NCBI GenBank assembly: GCA_963743305.1
Contig: CAVUPH010000033.1
Coordinates: forward strand, 32,001 to 96,000
DNA length: 64,000 nucleotides
Direction of reading: 5' to 3'
Source: an uncultured delta proteobacterium
GTDB lineage: Bacteria > Desulfobacterota > RBG-13-43-22
In this document: positions 142 to 23,189 of the stretch, piece by piece
Position numbering within the stretch: the stretch's first letter is position 1
Layout: every line of letters begins with the position of its first letter
Notes under the pieces: generated by a model
Told to the model about the DNA's origin: nothing
Seen by the model: only the letters and a program-made list of their open reading frames with translations
The model's database searches: none
Translations under genes and position numbers: made by a program

Positions 142-1575
142 ATGGGCCTGATTCAACGAAAAGAAAAGGATTTGACCGGCGGGATTTCTCTGGATCTTAA
201 ACGCGTCATTGACCAGGTCAGTCGTGATCGGGGCATAGATAAACAGATACTCATTTCCACCTTGGTCGAAGCGATTCGCCAGGCCGCCAAAAAAAAATTA
301 GGGCTTAAACAGGAAATCGAAGTCACTTACAACGAAGAATTGGGCGAGGTCGAAGTCTTTGAATTTAAAGAGGTGGTGGAAAAAGTCAAAGACCCCCAGA
401 CGCAGATTACCATGGAAGAGGGCCGCAATCTGGACCCGGAGTGCGAACTGGGAGACAGCTTGGGCATTAAGATGGAGACCAGTTCATTCGGACGGATTGC
501 CGCCCAGTCGGCCAAACAGGTTATCATCCAGCGGATGAAAGACGCTGAACGGGATATTATTTTTGAAGATTTTAGAGACCGCCGGGGAGAAGTGATAAAC
601 GGCATCATCCAGCGCTTCGACAAAGGAGCGGCGATTATCAACCTGGGGCGAACCGAAGCCATACTCCCGGTGACCGAACAAATTCCCACGGAGACTTATA
701 AACAGGGGGATCGCTTAAGGGCCTATGTGCTGGAAATAAAAAAGATCAGTAAGGGTCCGCAAATCATCCTCTCCCGCACCCATCCCCAATTTGTGGCGGC
801 TTTGTTTGAAATGGAAGTCCCGGAAGTATCGGAGAAGATCGTTCGGATTATCAATGTGGTCCGGGAACCGGGCGGCCGGACCAAGATTGCCGTGGCTTCG
901 GATGATAGACAGGTGGATCCGGTGGGGGCCTGTGTGGGCATGAAAGGCAATCGGGTTCAAAACGTCGTTCAGGAATTGCGGGGTGAAAAGATCGATATTA
1001 TCCCCTGGAACCCGGACCAGGCCAAATATATCTGCAGTGCTTTGGCCCCGGCCGAAGTCGTCCGGGTGATCATCGACGAAATAAGCCGTTCCATGGAAGT
1101 GGTCGTGCCCGATGACCAATTGTCCCTGGCCATCGGCAAACGAGGGCAGAATGTTCGCCTGGCCTCCCGTTTAACCGGATGGAAAATCGATGTTAAAAGC
1201 GAATCCAAGTACGACAAGTCCATTAAGGATGGATACCAGTCCCTGCTGCAGATTGCCGGTGTGGGAGAAGTGACGGCCGATGTCCTTTACAAAAAAGGCT
1301 TCCAATCCGCTCAAGAGGTGGCCGAAGCCTCGATAGAGGAACTCATCGAGGTCCCCGGCTTGAGCCAGAAAAAAGCCGAAAAGCTTTTGGAGTCGGCCGC
1401 CTCCTACGTCCAGCTCGAGCGTCAAAAAGACGCCCTGGATAAACAAAATCAAGCCCTGGAAGAGGAACAACGGGTCGCTACCGAAGCGGCGGCTACCGAC
1501 TTGGCTCAAGAGCCGCTCGAAGTGCCCGAAGTGCCGGAAGAGCCGAAGGCCGATGAACCGGAGGAACAGCAATAA
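142..1575 (+). CDS. nusA: Transcription termination/antitermination factor NusA
   Basis: FGRIAAQSAKQVI, S1 and KH domains (DPVGACVGMKG, SLAIGKRGQNVRLA), C-terminal HhH repeats. Confidence 0.98.
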   Translation: MGLIQRKEKDLTGGISLDLKRVIDQVSRDRGIDKQILISTLVEAIRQAAKKKLGLKQEIEVTYNEELGEVEVFEFKEVVEKVKDPQTQITMEEGRNLDPECELGDSLGIKMETSSFGRIAAQSAKQVIIQRMKDAERDIIFEDFRDRRGEVINGIIQRFDKGAAIINLGRTEAILPVTEQIPTETYKQGDRLRAYVLEIKKISKGPQIILSRTHPQFVAALFEMEVPEVSEKIVRIINVVREPGGRTKIAVASDDRQVDPVGACVGMKGNRVQNVVQELRGEKIDIIPWNPDQAKYICSALAPAEVVRVIIDEISRSMEVVVPDDQLSLAIGKRGQNVRLASRLTGWKIDVKSESKYDKSIKDGYQSLLQIAGVGEVTADVLYKKGFQSAQEVAEASIEELIEVPGLSQKKAEKLLESAASYVQLERQKDALDKQNQALEEEQRVATEAAATDLAQEPLEVPEVPEEPKADEPEEQQ

Positions 1576-17904: not shown

Positions 17905-17933
17905 TTGACAAATTATCCATAATGGAGTATAAA
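17905..17933 (+). promoter_or_regulatory. Sigma70-type promoter of the TA operon with a palindromic operator
   Basis: TTGACA-17 bp-TATAAA; spacer contains the palindrome TCCAT-A-ATGGA; ATG follows 6 nt after the -10 box, so the mRNA is probably leaderless. Confidence 0.75.
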
Positions 17934-17939
17934 GGTAGT

Positions 17940-18173
17940 ATGAAAGTCAAGACTTCTGTCACCCTTTCCAGGGAGCTTCTGGAGATCATCGATGCCCGGG
18001 CCAGGCAATCCAAAAAGAACCGGTCTGATTTTGTTGAAACCGCGGTTCGGCTGTTTATCCGGCAATTGGTGCGGGAAGAGCAGAACGCCAGAGACCTGGA
18101 GATTATAAACCGCCGCGCTGATCATCTCAATCGGGAGGCGGCCGACATTCTGACCTACCAGACCCCGCTATGA
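17940..18173 (+). CDS. Ribbon-helix-helix antitoxin
   Basis: [16 protein letters not shown]....NRSDFVE RHH pattern; ATGA overlap with the toxin gene. Confidence 0.85.
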
Positions 18174-18496
18174 AGCGGGGCGAATTGTACCGGGTGGCCA
18201 ATCCCACAGCCAAGGACCCAAAGAAATTCCGGGTCTTTGTAGTGGTCAGTCGCCAGGTGTTGATCGACTCCCGGTTTTCAACAGTCATTTGCGCACCGAT
18301 CTATACGGCCTACGACGGCCTGGCCAGTCAGGTCCCCGTGGGACCGGAAGAGGGCCTCAAGCACGAAAGCAGCATCCACTGTGACGAACTGGTTAGCCTC
18401 TTCAAGTCGGTTTTAACCAATTTTATCGGGACGTTGGCCACGGGCCAAATGGAACAACTGGACCGGGCCCTGCGGATCGCCATGGATCTTCCCTGA
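18170..18496 (+). CDS. PemK/MazF family toxin
   Basis: MKRGELYRV...RVFVVVSR...VICAPI...[13 protein letters not shown]. Confidence 0.9.
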
Positions 18497-18559
18497 TTTC
18501 CATTTTGAACCGATCAGGTCGGCGTGATGGTGTCTCCTCAGGTTTCGCTCTTCCGGGCC

Positions 18560-19063
18560 GCATTCGATAAAGCCTGATTCCCACCGGTTTTCTGATTATC
18601 GTCATCGAAGGATTGAATTGTAGCCGGTTTTATGAGCCTCTCCCGGGATGACCGGACCGCCGCGGCGGTGCTGCCGGCCCTGATCGGGCTGCTGCCCATG
18701 CCCGGGGGGGCACTGTTTTCCGTCCCCATGGTGGAAACGGCCTTGTGCCGCAACCCGATGACCGGGGAACAGCGGACAGCGGTCAACTGCTGGTTCCGGC
18801 ACATCTGGGAATACTGGTGGCCCCTCTACCCGGCGGTGGCCCTGCTGCGGGTGGAACCCTGGCTGTTTATGGCCTTCTTGGCCCCCATGACCGTTGTCAC
18901 GGTCCTGGCCGGCGTACTGTTTATATTGAAACCCCTGGGGTCCGGGACCGTTCGCCAGCAGGCGAGATTTTCCTGGACGGGGCTGAAAGGATTTTTATGG
19001 GAGATTATGCCGATCCTGATCGTGGTCCTGGTCTTTGATCATCCCCCTCGTCGATTTTTTTGA
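18560..19063 (+). pseudogene. DUF401 family membrane protein fragment
   Basis: LPALIGLLPMPGGALFS.PMV and WFRHIWEYWWPLYP motifs, but both ends are missing or frameshifted; only about 143 aa remain in frame. Confidence 0.7.
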
Positions 19064-19154
19064 TCCATCTCTTCGGCGACTTATGGTCACCGGAAATCGT
19101 TGGTCGACTGGCCAACCATCTGGGGGATGGCTACAATATGTGGTAGCTTAGGCT

Positions 19155-19435
19155 GAATTCGGGCCTCCGTGGCCGCCGGGTCTCGGCGAAAGGGTTTTCC
19201 ACCTTGCTTTTTAGGTTCTAACCCGGCCCCTAGGTTTTCAAATCTTCCAGGAGGCAGGGCCGGCCTGGGTGGCGCCAAGAAACCCGGGGTTCGGGCCTGC
19301 TTTAAATAAAATTAAACACTTAGGCCAGGATTCGAAGTCCGGAGTACCTTTGGAACCTTTGGCAAGGCCTTTCGCCGAGACCCGGCGGCCATACCAGATC
19401 TGGGGGGTACCCAACCAAAAGGGCGAAGCGTCAAA
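19155..19435. repeat. Nested palindromic repeat family A, copy with inverted core
   Basis: Flanks in the same orientation as the 14.1 kb copy; IR at 19169-19201 / 19360-19392; core is the reverse complement of 14168-14316. Confidence 0.92.
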
Positions 19436-19803
19436 TAAATTGCCGCCTACCGAGAGTTTAGACGGTTCCCGATTGGCGTTCGATTAATTGACCAGCGGGA
19501 AATCGGGGTCGGATCCCAATTCCCCAGGCAATTACCTCAGAATAAGCGGCAGGACTCACTGTGCCCAGAGCGTTGCCAATAGCATCAAGCGCATAGAATT
19601 TTTGACCATCAAAAGCCAGCCCGCCTTCAAAGGGCAGGTATCCCTGATTGGGGGGGTCCTTCAACAATTTCCGTTTGAAATTTTCTCAAAAGGGCGATCC
19701 GTCAAAAACAAGACTTCAGGAAGCTATACGTACTAAAATCTGAATTTCTTATTGAAGTTAATAGGTTACATGTTTCCTAAAATCTCATAGTTTGGTTCTT
19801 TCG

Positions 19804-20697
19804 TCAAGCATTATTTGGGTGGCCAGCCGTTTGTTGCCTAATCACCTCCATGGCTTTGAAGTAGTCTCTCTGAACCTTAAGGTTTGAAATCCGGCAGTAC
19901 CGTTGTGTGGTTTTCACATGGCTATGACCCAGGAGATCTTGAATGGTGGAAAGATCGGCATCGGCATTGAGCAGTTGGGTGGCCATGGTATGGCGAAGAT
20001 GATGACAGGACACCTTGAGCTTGGCTTGGCGAGCATAAGTTTCCATGCGCCGCTGAATGCCGCGGATGGAGATGGGCTGCCCCTGACAAGGTTTCTTTTC
20101 CGCCAGAAAGATCTTTCTGGCCTTGGATGGCGGCCTCACCGTCAGATAGGCGGCCAGGGCCTGAAGGGCATCATGGCTCATATAGACGACCCGATCTTTT
20201 CCACCCTTACCGTCTTCCACCAGGATAGTCCTGCGTTTGACGTCTATGACCCCGATCGTTAGCTGGGCGACTTCTTCCACCCGTAGCCCGCAACGGAGCA
20301 TGAGCATGAACATGGCCCGGTCACGGACGCCCTTGATGGCCTTAAAAAAGGTCTCCACCTGATCATCTCTCAGGTGTCGGGGAAGGGGCTGGGACATCTT
20401 CTGGAGATGAGTCTTCTTGATGGGGTTGGTGATAATCACCCCTTCCTCATCCCGCAGGTAATGGTAGAACTGGCGAATACCGTTCAAGTGGCAGTTGACC
20501 GTCTTGGGCGCCAGCCTCTTCCTCATGAGATGCTCGATGTAGCGCGACACGGTTACGTGGGTTACGGCCTCCACCGGCACATCCAGCCAGATGATAAAGT
20601 GTTTAATGAGGTTCAGATAGTTCTTCACGGCATGGGGCGAACAGTTCCGCCGCTTTAAAAATCTCTGCCAGTTCAGGATCGCATCGGTCATCGCCAT
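19804..20697 (-). CDS. Tyrosine recombinase/integrase (XerC/D-like), downstream gene of the pair
   Basis: GLRVEEV, GKGGKDRVV, HHLRHT, LGHSH.KTTQRY; full R-K-H-R-H-Y catalytic set. Confidence 0.96.
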   Translation of the reverse strand: MAMTDAILNWQRFLKRRNCSPHAVKNYLNLIKHFIIWLDVPVEAVTHVTVSRYIEHLMRKRLAPKTVNCHLNGIRQFYHYLRDEEGVIITNPIKKTHLQKMSQPLPRHLRDDQVETFFKAIKGVRDRAMFMLMLRCGLRVEEVAQLTIGVIDVKRRTILVEDGKGGKDRVVYMSHDALQALAAYLTVRPPSKARKIFLAEKKPCQGQPISIRGIQRRMETYARQAKLKVSCHHLRHTMATQLLNADADLSTIQDLLGHSHVKTTQRYCRISNLKVQRDYFKAMEVIRQQTAGHPNNA

Positions 20698-21742
20698 TAC
20701 TGTCCCTCCTCTCTATTTTCGACATGGCTCTAAAATACTCAGCCTCCCGGGTCTTATCAGTCAGCCGGGCATACCGCCGGGTCTCCTCAATGCTCCGGTG
20801 CCCCAACAAAACCTGGAGACACTCCAGACGCATGCCGGCGTTGAGAAACTCCGTAGCAAAGGTGTGGCGAAGGGTATGCAGGGAATATCCCTTGTCGGCC
20901 AATCCCGCCTTCACCAGATAGCGCATAAAAATGGTCCGGGCGGTGCTGTAGGACATGGTCTCTGTCCGGGTATAGATCAGGTACTCCTCACTGGGATTCC
21001 TCTTCTTCAACCACCCCCGCAGAGCCAGGACCGCATCGTCGCTGAGATAGACCACCCTCCCCAGGCGGTTCTTCTCCCCTTCGTAAATCTCTATCCTCCG
21101 CTCCTTGAGATGGACGTCGGCCATCTTGGTATTAAGCAGTTCACCGATCCGCAGGCCCGTCCTCAACAAGACCAGGACCATGGCCCGGTCACGAATATCT
21201 TCAATGACCGAAAGCAGCTTCTGGAGATCGTCAGGATCCATGGCCCGCGGCAGCCGCTCCGGTAACTGCAACCGTATCCTCCTGCTGAATAGTTCCGCGG
21301 AAACCATCCCTTCTTCTAACAGGTAACGGAGAAAGGCTTGCACACTCACCAGCCTGGTCCTGATCGTTGTAATCTTAATCCCCCGGTCCTGCTCCTGCTC
21401 AATGAACGCCTCCACATCCCTTCGGGTAATGGCTTCAAGGGATGCTTTGCCGCTCTCTCGTATCAGGCCAAGAAAAAGAATGATCGCCCCAAAACGACTG
21501 TACAAGGTCCTCGGTCTGCGGTTGCCATGAGTCAGGTGACGAAGATAGGCTTCCACCTGATCCTTCCCCGGAAGGTCCATCCGGACCAGCCGTTTTAAAA
21601 TCTGGCCAAGCGCTTCTAAACAGTCTTTAGAATTTATTTTAAATCGTAATCGCGTTTGATAATAATGGGGAGCGTTACCGGCGGGAATCTTAAAATCAGA
21701 AGATTTACTCGTCTGCTGTAGATCACTATGTCCGTTCATCAT
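20603..21742 (-). CDS. Tyrosine recombinase/integrase (XerC/D-like), upstream gene of the pair
   Basis: GLRIGEL, EKNRLGRVV, HTLRHT, LGHRSIEETRRY; AAGGAG RBS; 3' end overlaps the partner gene by 95 bp. Confidence 0.96.
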   Translation of the reverse strand: MMNGHSDLQQTSKSSDFKIPAGNAPHYYQTRLRFKINSKDCLEALGQILKRLVRMDLPGKDQVEAYLRHLTHGNRRPRTLYSRFGAIILFLGLIRESGKASLEAITRRDVEAFIEQEQDRGIKITTIRTRLVSVQAFLRYLLEEGMVSAELFSRRIRLQLPERLPRAMDPDDLQKLLSVIEDIRDRAMVLVLLRTGLRIGELLNTKMADVHLKERRIEIYEGEKNRLGRVVYLSDDAVLALRGWLKKRNPSEEYLIYTRTETMSYSTARTIFMRYLVKAGLADKGYSLHTLRHTFATEFLNAGMRLECLQVLLGHRSIEETRRYARLTDKTREAEYFRAMSKIERRDSNGDDRCDPELAEIFKAAELFAPCREELSEPH

Positions 21743-21899
21743 CTCTGTCTCCTTTTCTTAAATCAATAAGAAAATCAGACAGATGATGACTAATAAACTC
21801 TTATCTGTCAAACATCAGCTTGGTACGTATAGCAGGAAGCAGTCTTTTCCGAAAGAACAAATCTCCTTCCCTTCTAGCGCGTATAGATAGGAATAACAG

Positions 21900-23189
21900 T
21901 TAAGGCCGCTCCGGTTTTCCTCCTACCATCCGCTGGGTGATCTCCCAGATAACCTGTATTCCGGTTACCAAATCGCTGATCCGGATCCGTTCGTCCACAC
22001 CGTGTATACGCCCGGTATCTTCGGCCTCCAGCATAGCCGGGATCCAGCCATAACAGACCATTCCGAGGTCCCGAAAACACCGCGAATCGGTGAAGCCGGG
22101 GAAAATCCCGGGCAGGAAAACGGCCTGGGGAAAAAATTGTTTAGCGGTTTGTTCCAGACATTGAAAAAATTCGTTTTCAACCGGGGAAAGTGAGGCCGGA
22201 AAGGATTGAATGGCCTGCAGGGAAAAGGGGCCGGGAGGAAGGGTTTCTTTGATTTCAGCCTTCACGGCCTCCAGGGACCGTCCGGGGAGTACCCGCAGAT
22301 CCAAGGTAGCCTCGGCCCGGGCGGGGATCACGTTGGGTTTGAAACCGGCCTGGAGCATGGTGATGCTCAGGGTGTCCTGGAACATGGCCCGCAAGTGCGG
22401 GATCTGAAGGAGGGGATGGCCGGCCAAGGCCTCCGGGGTCAGTTCCGCCAGTCCCAGATTTTTCAACAGGGTCTGCATCTCGGGGAGGACCCGCAAAGGG
22501 CGTCGAACGGCTTTCAGAGCCGACAAGCCTTCCAGCAGGGTATCGCAGGGATTTTGTCCGTGAGGTACGGAACCATGGCCGGCTTTCCCTTCGGCGGTCA
22601 GCCGAAGCCAGAGGGGGCCTTTCTCGCCGAAGCCCAGGATGACCGCCTCCCAATCTCCCATTTTCCAGCCGGAACCCCCTTCGTTCAACAACCAGGCGGC
22701 TTCCAGTTCCGAGGCATGATGCTTCGTTAGATATTCGGCCCCGTTTTGGCTGCCGGTCTCTTCATCGCAGCAGACGACCAGCACCAGGTCTTTGCGCAGG
22801 GGCAGTTTCTCCCGTTTGGCCAGAACGAAGGCCATTAGTTCCATGATCCCCATGCCTTTCATGTCCAAGGCGCCCCGGCCGTACAGATATCCGTCCTTGA
22901 CCATCCCGCCAAAGGGGGGGACCGTCCATTCCTGGGGATTGGCGCCCACCACGTCACAGTGGTGCAGGAGCATCAACCCTTGGGGATCTCGGTCAGAGGT
23001 CAGCCGGCTGATCAGGTTGGGGCGTTCCGAATCCGCCCCCAGGATGGCAGCGGGAAGTCCTTCTTTCTTGAGGAAGCGGCTTAGAAACTCGATGGCCTTT
23101 CGTTCGTTGCCCGGCGGGTTGGTCGTGTCAATCCGAATGTATTCCGAAAGCAAATCGGTCGCCTCCTGTTCAATAGCCTTCCAATCCAT
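21900..23189 (-). CDS. M20/M25/M40 family metallopeptidase/deacylase
   Basis: HCDVV, YGRGALDMKG, DEETGS, GFTDSR, HGVDERI. Confidence 0.94.
   Translation of the reverse strand: MDWKAIEQEATDLLSEYIRIDTTNPPGNERKAIEFLSRFLKKEGLPAAILGADSERPNLISRLTSDRDPQGLMLLHHCDVVGANPQEWTVPPFGGMVKDGYLYGRGALDMKGMGIMELMAFVLAKREKLPLRKDLVLVVCCDEETGSQNGAEYLTKHHASELEAAWLLNEGGSGWKMGDWEAVILGFGEKGPLWLRLTAEGKAGHGSVPHGQNPCDTLLEGLSALKAVRRPLRVLPEMQTLLKNLGLAELTPEALAGHPLLQIPHLRAMFQDTLSITMLQAGFKPNVIPARAEATLDLRVLPGRSLEAVKAEIKETLPPGPFSLQAIQSFPASLSPVENEFFQCLEQTAKQFFPQAVFLPGIFPGFTDSRCFRDLGMVCYGWIPAMLEAEDTGRIHGVDERIRISDLVTGIQVIWEITQRMVGGKPERP

Follow-up and report, generated by a model that had tools for sequence, protein, structure and literature searches.

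A 2.1-kb segment with two tyrosine recombinase genes in an uncultured delta proteobacterium: a probable site-specific integrative element with a fixed 7-bp core

Background

Can two tyrosine recombinase genes, with nothing else between their ends, constitute a complete mobile element, and how would such an element find its place of insertion? The question is raised by a stretch of 64,000 nt from an uncultured delta proteobacterium (contig CAVUPH010000033.1, positions 32,001 to 96,000), here called the window, with all coordinates counted from its first letter. Two minus-strand open reading frames (ORF1 and ORF2) fill a 2,109-bp segment of the window (19724-21832) between two copies of a short core sequence, and no other genes are present there. 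The initial annotation of the locus described an insertion sequence (IS)-sized element with inverted ends, an 8-bp direct repeat, relaxed target choice and rejoined ends that resemble loxP. Our comparison with related genomes leads us to regard 19724-21832, with a probability of about 0.8, as an autonomous IS-sized site-specific integrative element, consisting of two recombinases, terminal arms and a core shared with its target, which moves and is retargeted by core-based recombination.

The mobile unit and its copies

The ends of the segment contain CAGGAAGC twice (19717-19724 and 21833-21840); CTATACGTACTAA begins at 19724 and TTGGTACGTATAG finishes at 21832, with AAGACT 5' of the left repeat and AGTCTT 3' of the right one. 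The perfect inverted repeat comprises 10 bp (CTATACGTAC), each arm touching CAGGAAG, and the 13-nt ends of the unit match at 11 of 13 positions. This 10-mer occurs in only two places in the window if up to one mismatch is allowed. In shuffled sequence the mean is 0.52 matches, and because 10 of 100 shuffles reach two, the pair of arms alone is weak against chance; the feature nevertheless goes beyond chance, because dozens of loci have the same gene pair enclosed by the same arms and core. A second, subterminal inverted repeat of 17 nt, absent from the initial annotation, is 94% complementary between its two copies, and equivalent repeats are present in distant family members.

Copies within single genomes define the unit. 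Three copies in genome G020 are 99.5-100% identical between the cores and five copies in G061 (Smithellaceae) 99.0-100%, whereas the same global measure gives only 51-70% identity for their 70-bp flanks. Sequences that are near-identical between the cores and unrelated outside therefore form a discrete mobile unit, and 19724-21832 is a mobile element with a core at each side. The ends proposed in the initial annotation are thereby found to be exact, with copies diverging at the cores and no conservation of flanking DNA beyond them. BLAST matches in relatives likewise stop at 21839-21844 and 19704-19724. The window's own genome (G000, 43 contigs) possesses a single full copy and also a 152-bp remnant of the ORF1-side end (L002, C16:9593-9744, 97% identical), which begins within the first ORF1 codons and stops directly after CAGGAAG. 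Decayed solo ends of the unit are found at other loci as well; of the supposed solo left ends in G017, two were discarded as assembly breaks, since they lie at contig ends, and others are true remnants of 110-331 bp. A fixed chromosomal recombination module, or a part of a larger island, would be in keeping with a left flank (the module described below and upstream DNA) that accompanies the element in three genomes of the genus, but the near-identical copies in different contexts of one genome, the drop of identity exactly at the cores and the decayed solo ends elsewhere make it very improbable.

Relatives of ORF1 are encoded at 41 loci in other genomes, mostly metagenome-assembled genomes (MAGs) labelled Smithellaceae, Syntrophales or delta proteobacterium. 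At the DNA level, 15 of the 61 related genomes searched (G000 among them) have matches; within the same family, the figure is 12 of 20 genomes. ORF1 is followed by ORF2 at every locus with a long enough contig, even where identity has fallen to 48% and 57%, and related loci always possess a recombinase pair, never a trio. Searching species-representative genomes by motif and tblastn with the ORF2 alignment yields 525 stretches; the best 80 of these 525 are at least 58% identical and belong mainly to Desulfobacterota orders and Thermodesulfovibrionales, besides a handful of short contigs from bins with odd labels. Viral contigs contain no close relatives, the best match reaching 37% identity.

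One element copy in G001 (L085 10134-13699, C13) is split at the window-equivalent position 20530-20534 by a 3.57-kb insertion, which is also found elsewhere in the window's genome (C23, C9) with about 90% identity.

The fixed core and its target

In the subfamily to which the window copy belongs, right junctions read GTACGTATAG-CAGGAAG, followed by immediate divergence, and left junctions CAGGAAG-CTATACGTAC. The core is off at one or two positions in a few decayed copies (e.g. L018, L035). Among 26 distinct copies outside the window, the right core is followed by A in 12, T in 8, C in 4 and G in 2, so the C that forms the eighth base of the window's repeat is a matter of chance. Of the 8-bp direct repeat initially described, the letters are indeed present at both ends, but the true repeat is the constant 7-bp core CAGGAAG and not a target duplication. 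Comparison of copies and flanks across genomes, which had been suggested as the means to tell the two apart, gives the same core at every subfamily copy, i.e. a fixed core shared by element and target. A target-duplicating transposon with loose target choice, at first sight suggested by the 8 bp that flank the window copy in direct repetition, deserves hardly any credence in view of this constancy, which extends to the 152-bp remnant L002, and of the varying eighth base.

Positions next to the core are conserved too. Left flanks (24 distinct) have T at -2 in 24/24, A at -4 in 21/24 and T or A at -1 in 23/24; right flanks (26 distinct) have A at +2 in 24/26 and T at +4 in 13/26. The resulting target consensus, A-N-T-W / core / N-A, is dyad-symmetric at its conserved positions. 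With a 7-bp core that is fixed and common to element and target, and with conserved flanking positions, integration is therefore site-specific, and the relaxed target choice of the initial annotation is contradicted by the invariant core and by the T at -2 and A at +2. Its reconstructed empty site, palindromic about the same centre, agrees with the weak dyad symmetry of the target in the aligned flanks.

An empty site, also sought, exists in the sister genome G002. There the orthologue of the window's right flank (G002:C12) starts exactly at window position 21841 (91% over 1,360 bp) and is devoid of the element; the unoccupied site consists of a module and core, reading module...GGACTA-CAGGAAG-CAGTCTC. 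The element thus has one and the same core at its two junctions and in the unoccupied target, and encodes recombinases of its own, as site-specific integrative elements in general do.

Sister subfamilies

A survey of terminal arms comprises 54 elements with both arms located, and in nearly all of them the arms read CTATACGTA[A/C]C, which bears out the expectation that homologous gene pairs carry CTATACGTA ends. The same 7-mer is present at both junctions of 44 of the 54 elements: CAGGAAG 19, GTAGGTG/CACCTAC 16, CAAATAC 4, GTAGATG 2, CTGCTAT 2 and CCTATAT 1. Five of the remaining elements differ at 1-3 positions between junctions, five are unclear. On the ORF2 tree (44 rows) core type requires 11 changes, with a minimum of 8 and a shuffled mean of 25.1, and the CAAATAC and CACCTAC groups nest in the CAGGAAG clade, some with starred support. 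According to this tree, cores cluster but have been switched several times among close recombinase relatives. Core switching with constant arms fits an overlap region that is matched between partners and not read by proteins. The T-T / N-A flank signature is found beside other cores as well, and in GTAGGTG-core elements a conserved flank motif peculiar to them lies some 40 bp away from the core.

Three observations concern individual loci of these subfamilies. The loci L038 and L147-L151, compared with L153-L172, carry the same core in both orientations relative to the genes (CACCTAC vs GTAGGTG), the core of the GTAGGTG clade being flipped between otherwise palindromic arms. In one MAG (L030 and L031), two or three elements lie inside 9 kb in both orientations, with CAGGAAG-type and CACCTAC-type elements side by side. 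The right junction of L160 consists of the core followed by CTATAAGTAACAA, a near-copy of the left arm that suggests the remnant of a tandem neighbour.

The two recombinase genes

Both ORFs possess a Pfam Phage_integrase domain (PF00589) and SAM-like N-terminal, i.e. core-binding (CB), domains; their PF00589 scores of 129 and 137 bits (cutoff 27.1) place them in the tyrosine recombinase superfamily. They overlap by 95 nt, are probably translationally coupled, and are paralogues with about 30% identity. The catalytic residues R198, K224, H289, R292, H315 and Y324 of ORF1 are invariant in 37 family rows, and R139, K164/K167, H232, R235, H258 and Y267 of ORF2 in 35 family rows, in both cases apart from gaps, which represent truncated ORFs. 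Both paralogues can, judging from these alignments, be taken as catalytically competent. ORF and Pfam scans agree with the initial annotation that two intact tyrosine recombinase genes are the only cargo of the segment.

The top NCBIfam models are XerA, XerC and XerD, all far under their cutoffs, with best scores of 157.5 for ORF1 (XerA, cutoff 220) and 204.4 for ORF2 (XerC, cutoff 335). The best Protein Data Bank (PDB) matches of ORF2 are XerC-like, XerA and XerD, those of ORF1 likewise Xer-type structures; Cre is not among the PDB sequence matches of either ORF at E<=1e-5. Both proteins are Xer-like in fold and sequence, but do not belong to the Xer chromosome-dimer resolvases (XerC, XerD, XerA, XerS). 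Against the NCBIfam integron-integrase model, which carries the IntI-specific insertion, they score 71 and 109.6 bits (cutoff 265).

The AlphaFold model of ORF1 contains one CB domain, preceded by an extra helix (38-53), only a 4-residue helix (149-152) between the CB and catalytic (CAT) domains, and a low-confidence C-terminal helix (356-367). N-terminal beta-strands are not seen in this model, in which residues 1-36 are of low confidence (pLDDT <50). The N-terminus is poorly conserved across the family, and an arm-binding domain of the lambda-integrase kind in ORF1 is therefore unlikely, given a low-confidence, poorly conserved N-terminus with one extra helix. A predicted complex of ORF1 (55-348) and ORF2 scores 0.30, with the mark at 0.32, in a prediction made without controls.

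The coordinates of the element and of its adjoining target sequences are compiled in Table 1. Loci of several subfamilies likewise have a TTGAC motif some 20 nt from the end of the unit, as in the promoter-like site listed there.

Table 1. Positions of the mobile unit, its genes, repeats and target-side sequences in the window
Feature	Position	Strand	Remarks
Left-flank module (target DNA, outside the mobile unit)	19441..19716	+	conserved 70-bp part at ~19655-19716
Target-side left arm AAGACTT	19710..19716		24 distinct left flanks compared
Left core CAGGAAG, putative crossover/overlap region	19717..19723	+	constant at both junctions in the subfamily
Mobile unit proper	19724..21832	-	2109 bp; copy identity (one genome) 99-100% inside vs 51-70% outside
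Left terminal arm CTATACGTAC(TAA)	19724..19736		first 10 bp repeated in perfect inversion at the right arm
Left subterminal repeat TCTGAATTTCTTATTGA	19739..19755		pairs with 21763-21779
ORF2, 297-aa Xer-like tyrosine recombinase	19804..20697	-	PF00589 E 6.7e-40, SAM-like domains
ORF1, 379-aa Xer-like tyrosine recombinase, variable N-terminal extension	20603..21742	-	PF00589 E 1.8e-37
Right subterminal repeat TCAATAAGAAAATCAGA	21763..21779		pairs with 19739-19755
Promoter-like TTGACA-17-CATCAT upstream of ORF1	21783..21811	-	consensus match only, 10/12 positions
Right terminal arm (TTG)GTACGTATAG	21820..21832		inverted repeat with the left arm
Right core CAGGAAG	21833..21839	+	homology with every other copy stops directly after it
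Target-side right arm CAGTCTT	21840..21846		26 distinct right flanks compared

The landing place

Most copies are preceded, left of the left core (ORF2 side), by a related but divergent intergenic sequence of about 70 bp, the module, with a distal motif ATT-N-C-N-N-TTTGAA about 50 bp from the core. A search with nhmmer detects some 12 modules in the genome of the window; the majority have no element beside them, and each ends T/A-CAGGAAG. The module is not part of the element, because element copies in one genome adjoin different modules and most modules lack an element. A hidden Markov model (HMM) was built, without the core, from nine modules of the window's genome that are empty; it matches 10 of 24 distinct left flanks and none of the 26 distinct right flanks; a match at L067 was dropped from this count, being located in the window's genome and not belonging to an element copy. 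At that locus (L067 3065-3090; G000 C19, C19:3073) a module ending CTACAGGAAG is followed by CTATACGAAC, which resembles the left arm of the element. It was rejected as a second element, as the ORFs downstream are ordinary genes and not recombinases; it is perhaps, even probably, a decayed end. CAGGAAG occurs 1,569 times in the window's genome, with 12 occurrences fitting the full flank consensus and 4 of these 12 in modules. Modules may just be the places in which good sites happen to be found.

A subset of modules extends to about 200-330 bp, and at the window the extended, more diverged part of the left module reaches back to the end of a high-copy repeat at 19440. The extended part of one module locus carries a leftward promoter-like TTTACT-16-TATAAT. 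In one module the core lies inside a terminator-like hairpin, most empty modules being without a good hairpin. Of 13 sites examined, 12 have an upstream ORF, and in 11 of these the nearest gene on that side is directed away from the module; the window copy adjoins the 3' end of an M20 peptidase gene, at the end of the module. A role of the module as small RNA or riboswitch was dropped: Rfam yields no match at E<=1 in window positions 18000-23000 or in four module loci, and RNAalifold detects no conserved fold in six extended modules (-0.62 kcal/mol, 5 pairs).

Proposed mechanism and the excised form

Tyrosine recombinases perform a conservative exchange within an overlap of 6-8 bp between inverted binding sites. 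In the element described here, the two junctions would recombine within the 7-bp core, which would act as the overlap region. This would release a circle bearing a lox/FRT-like arm-core-arm site and restore the chromosome to A-N-T-W / CAGGAAG / N-A-N-T. Arms and core as read in the sequence confirm that the rejoined ends would give inverted arms around a short asymmetric spacer. Integration would be the reverse reaction at a site with the same core, identity between the partners setting target and orientation, and each junction has the core once because element and target share it. Lineages would retarget by a change of the core, with arms and enzymes kept. One paralogue would act on the element arms and the other on the target arms, each junction being a mixed site of Xer/dif-like type; such a division of labour would be the most economical role for two conserved catalytic paralogues, because element and target sites are both dyad-symmetric with different arm sequences. 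The data show where the element ends, that it moves, that its core is constant, which consensus its targets follow, that the gene pair is conserved with intact catalytic residues and that cores have been switched; the circular intermediate, the position of the crossover and the division of labour we infer.

Free-standing arm-core-arm sites are known from two places. The rejoined-ends motif has only two matches in public contigs, L201 (a genome; 1417-1439, minus strand; CAGGAAG core with arms of 8-9 bp) and L202 (a metagenome; 1207-1229, plus strand; CAGGAAG core with perfect 13-bp arms), each at the end of a module; the GTAGGTG-core version has 0 matches in public contigs. No recombinase genes are present on either contig, and neither is a circle or a tandem. 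They may serve as landing pads, may be left over from tandem insertions, or may be ancestral. Their existence means that a PCR product across the 'circle junction' alone would be no proof of a circle.

An extension of the proposed mechanism, which we hold only tentatively and rather doubt, is a 2+2 heterotetramer in which one homodimer would occupy the element site and the other the differently armed target, the core mainly setting the target. Such a division would be new for tyrosine recombinases. If true, the system would be retargetable through its spacer, with a core naturally rewritten without change of the enzymes, and the sites of L201 and L202 would be natural landing pads or relics of the cycle.

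Several points weigh against the reading as an excising and reintegrating element. No circle or excision joints are found in the contigs of 4 of 20 metagenome runs. Unitigs of the same runs end at 19712 and 21839, as repeat edges would, and this contig-based search for joints neither supports nor refutes excision. The two matches of the rejoined-ends motif in public contigs are both chromosomal. Which protein binds which arm, and the need for both, are matters that we infer. Multi-recombinase SEs circularise without leaving an empty site, according to passages of PMC10214605, and cut-and-paste is therefore not guaranteed here. Most genomes used are MAGs, in which repeats can be misjoined. Finally, the window does not form a clean pair of filled and empty site with G002: its left module is a different variant from the orthologous module of G002, its left flank is syntenic with G002 only to ~19036, and 10.3 kb of ordinary genes, located in G002 between the point of the DUF401 gene and the M20 peptidase gene, are absent. 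The mismatch of left module and flank therefore implies at least one further rearrangement at the window locus.

A different mode of movement would leave boundaries and site specificity as described: a replicative or strand-biased 'copy-out' as in SE/GInt and perhaps in Tn554-type elements, in which a circle or a single-stranded copy is made, the donor copy stays and excision never regenerates an empty site. The several copies per genome, the absence of excision products from the contigs of the 4 runs and the attL x attR recombination of SEs with several tyrosine recombinases, which leaves no empty site (passages of PMC10214605), are in its favour. We consider it unlikely, as SE/GInt need four core genes and Tn554 needs TnpC, with no room for extras here, and as excision after replication would account for the copy number just as well; the present data fit both modes alike.

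The rearranged locus

On the left side of the window copy, the DUF401 gene (18632-19063) is cut short, with 143 aa covering profile positions 96-190 of 393; in G002 an ORF of 427 aa (L081 2113-3396) overlaps the stretch syntenic to this remnant. Between remnant and module lies a high-copy repeat of ~310 bp (19122-19440), the last 80 bp of which match the first 80 bp in reverse. With these inverted ends it looks like a MITE-like element; it is matched 88 times in the window's own genome, and three sister genomes have 41-88 matches each. The left-flank DNA (~19434-19716) is also found with an element in G002:C10 (L005/L084) and G001:C13 (L060/L085), where the right flanks differ. Likewise, L007 and L008 have the element and 3.1 kb of module-side flank in common, 97.5% identical, and share nothing on the other side. 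A module-side flank that travels with the element in two independent cases suggests a rearrangement breakpoint at or within the element. Later rearrangement is the simplest reading of the swapped flanks: the right junction may have recombined with some other core site, or copies may have exchanged flanks homologously; misassembly of MAGs at repeats may also play a part. Flank searches for the copies of G061 and G002 find no orthologous loci, hence no cleaner pair of filled and empty site.

The flanks bring in a further explanation, an integron-like cassette exchange, in which the enzymes would use module ends to delete, capture and shuffle segments, the two-gene unit being just one cassette. 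The module always lies on the same side of the element (10/24 left vs 0/26 right flanks), G003 has two modules in direct order with a single gene between them, immediately upstream of its copy of the M20 gene, the window lacks the 10-kb stretch of G002 with one breakpoint exactly at the core, and the two cases of common module-side flanks with different other flanks as well as the free-standing arm-core-arm sites at module ends could be understood in the same way. On the other hand, modules are dispersed, mostly solitary and form no arrays, and what lies between them are ordinary genes of various sizes and orientations. The 4 of 12 best-consensus sites that already lie in modules allow the association to reflect the location of good sites, swapped flanks are also explained by homologous recombination between copies, and the integron-integrase scores are far under the cutoff. 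Cassette exchange is on balance quite improbable, and we retain the autonomous site-specific element as the preferred reading.

Farther to the left (17922-18496), overlapping genes of ribbon-helix-helix (RHH, CopG-like) and PemK/MazF-like type form a type II toxin-antitoxin pair according to Pfam.

Significance

With two enzymes, two arms and one core, this appears to be the smallest autonomous type of tyrosine-recombinase element among those we found described. The family is large and found in genomes of sulfate reducers and syntrophs; it is common in MAGs of Desulfobacterota and Thermodesulfovibrionales, and its sites are unusually legible, which makes the biochemistry directly testable. At least six natural cores on near-identical arms represent a ready-made set of probably orthogonal recombination sites, and the family could supply new pairs of recombinase and site. 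It also poses, in the simplest form, the old question of why RIT, Tn554 and SE/GInt need more than one tyrosine recombinase. In annotation, such gene pairs now bear only the name of generic integrases, and the elements mark rearrangement breakpoints in these genomes.

Comparison with known systems

No description of a two-recombinase IS-like element was found in the literature searched, the supplements (Table S3 of PMC3414803, the datasets of PMC8138268) standing outside this search, and the section of PMC8138268 on simple tyrosine recombinases lists no two-enzyme IS-like group. The family is provisionally regarded as undescribed. Its closest kinds are the multi-recombinase elements of RIT and Tn554 type, although defining features of both are absent here.

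RIT elements, as portrayed in parts of PMC3414803 and PMC8138268, are IS-sized and multicopy, consist only of overlapping tyrosine recombinase genes between inverted repeats, and their mobility is deduced from their distribution. According to the same parts, they possess three recombinases in ~3.5 kb, RitA with two CB domains and RitC with an extra C-terminal helix; PMC3414803, in the parts concerned, reports no convincing sites. The present element is similarly IS-sized and recombinase-only, with inverted repeats and several copies per genome. Unlike RIT as described, it has two apparently plain CB+CAT proteins in 2.1 kb instead of a ritA-ritB-ritC trio, and it has sharp arms of 10-16 bp that abut a 7-bp core.

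Tn554 inserts site-specifically and without target duplication. Two adjacent, overlapping tyrosine recombinase genes are common to Tn554-type tandems and the present element, and in a plasmid collection the best matches of ORF1 include short TnpA-like partners of Tn554-like tandems (H1 and H12, two contexts inspected), with 36% identity to the short partner of H12 over the catalytic domain. ORF2 matches the long partner of the tandem with 24% (E 1e-15) and the short one with 26% (E 4e-22), values that do not point to a specific relationship of ORF2 with the long Tn554-type partner. Unlike Tn554, the element has no TnpC-like third gene, its second gene encodes 297 aa compared with 611-695 aa in the inspected tandems, and it has perfect terminal inverted repeats. 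The TnpA subgroup is characterised, in the relevant part of Smyshlyaev et al. 2021 (PMC8138268), by a pair of N-terminal beta-strands and by an inserted helix that separates the CB domain from the CAT domain.

SE/GInt elements, in the passages of PMC10214605 devoted to them, need more than one tyrosine recombinase, have short terminal inverted repeats, and carry four conserved genes plus cargo in 7-14 kb and more. The present element is likewise integrative, with more than one recombinase and short inverted ends, but has two genes, none of the four-gene core set-up and no cargo. BIM, characterised in part of PMC3414803 as one tyrosine recombinase plus a conserved protein of unknown function with a predicted SMC domain, is also a two-gene module that includes a tyrosine recombinase; membership in BIM was rejected, both genes here being recombinases.

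XerC/XerD-dif systems share with the element two paralogous Xer-like recombinases and, at each integrated junction, two different arms around a short centre. Unlike in dif systems, the enzymes are encoded by the element, and the target is not a unique terminus, with the core present at about 12 modules in the window's genome. As in Cre/loxP and FLP/FRT, the rejoined ends would consist of perfect inverted arms with a short asymmetric spacer that is the same in both partners and would set the orientation, and spacer variants would define separate specificities. The single recombinase of Cre/lox is replaced by two conserved enzymes, the spacer comprises 7 bp, and the partner site has different, weakly conserved arms; the site architecture is nonetheless that of the rejoined ends. 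The likeness to loxP noted at the outset is one of architecture.

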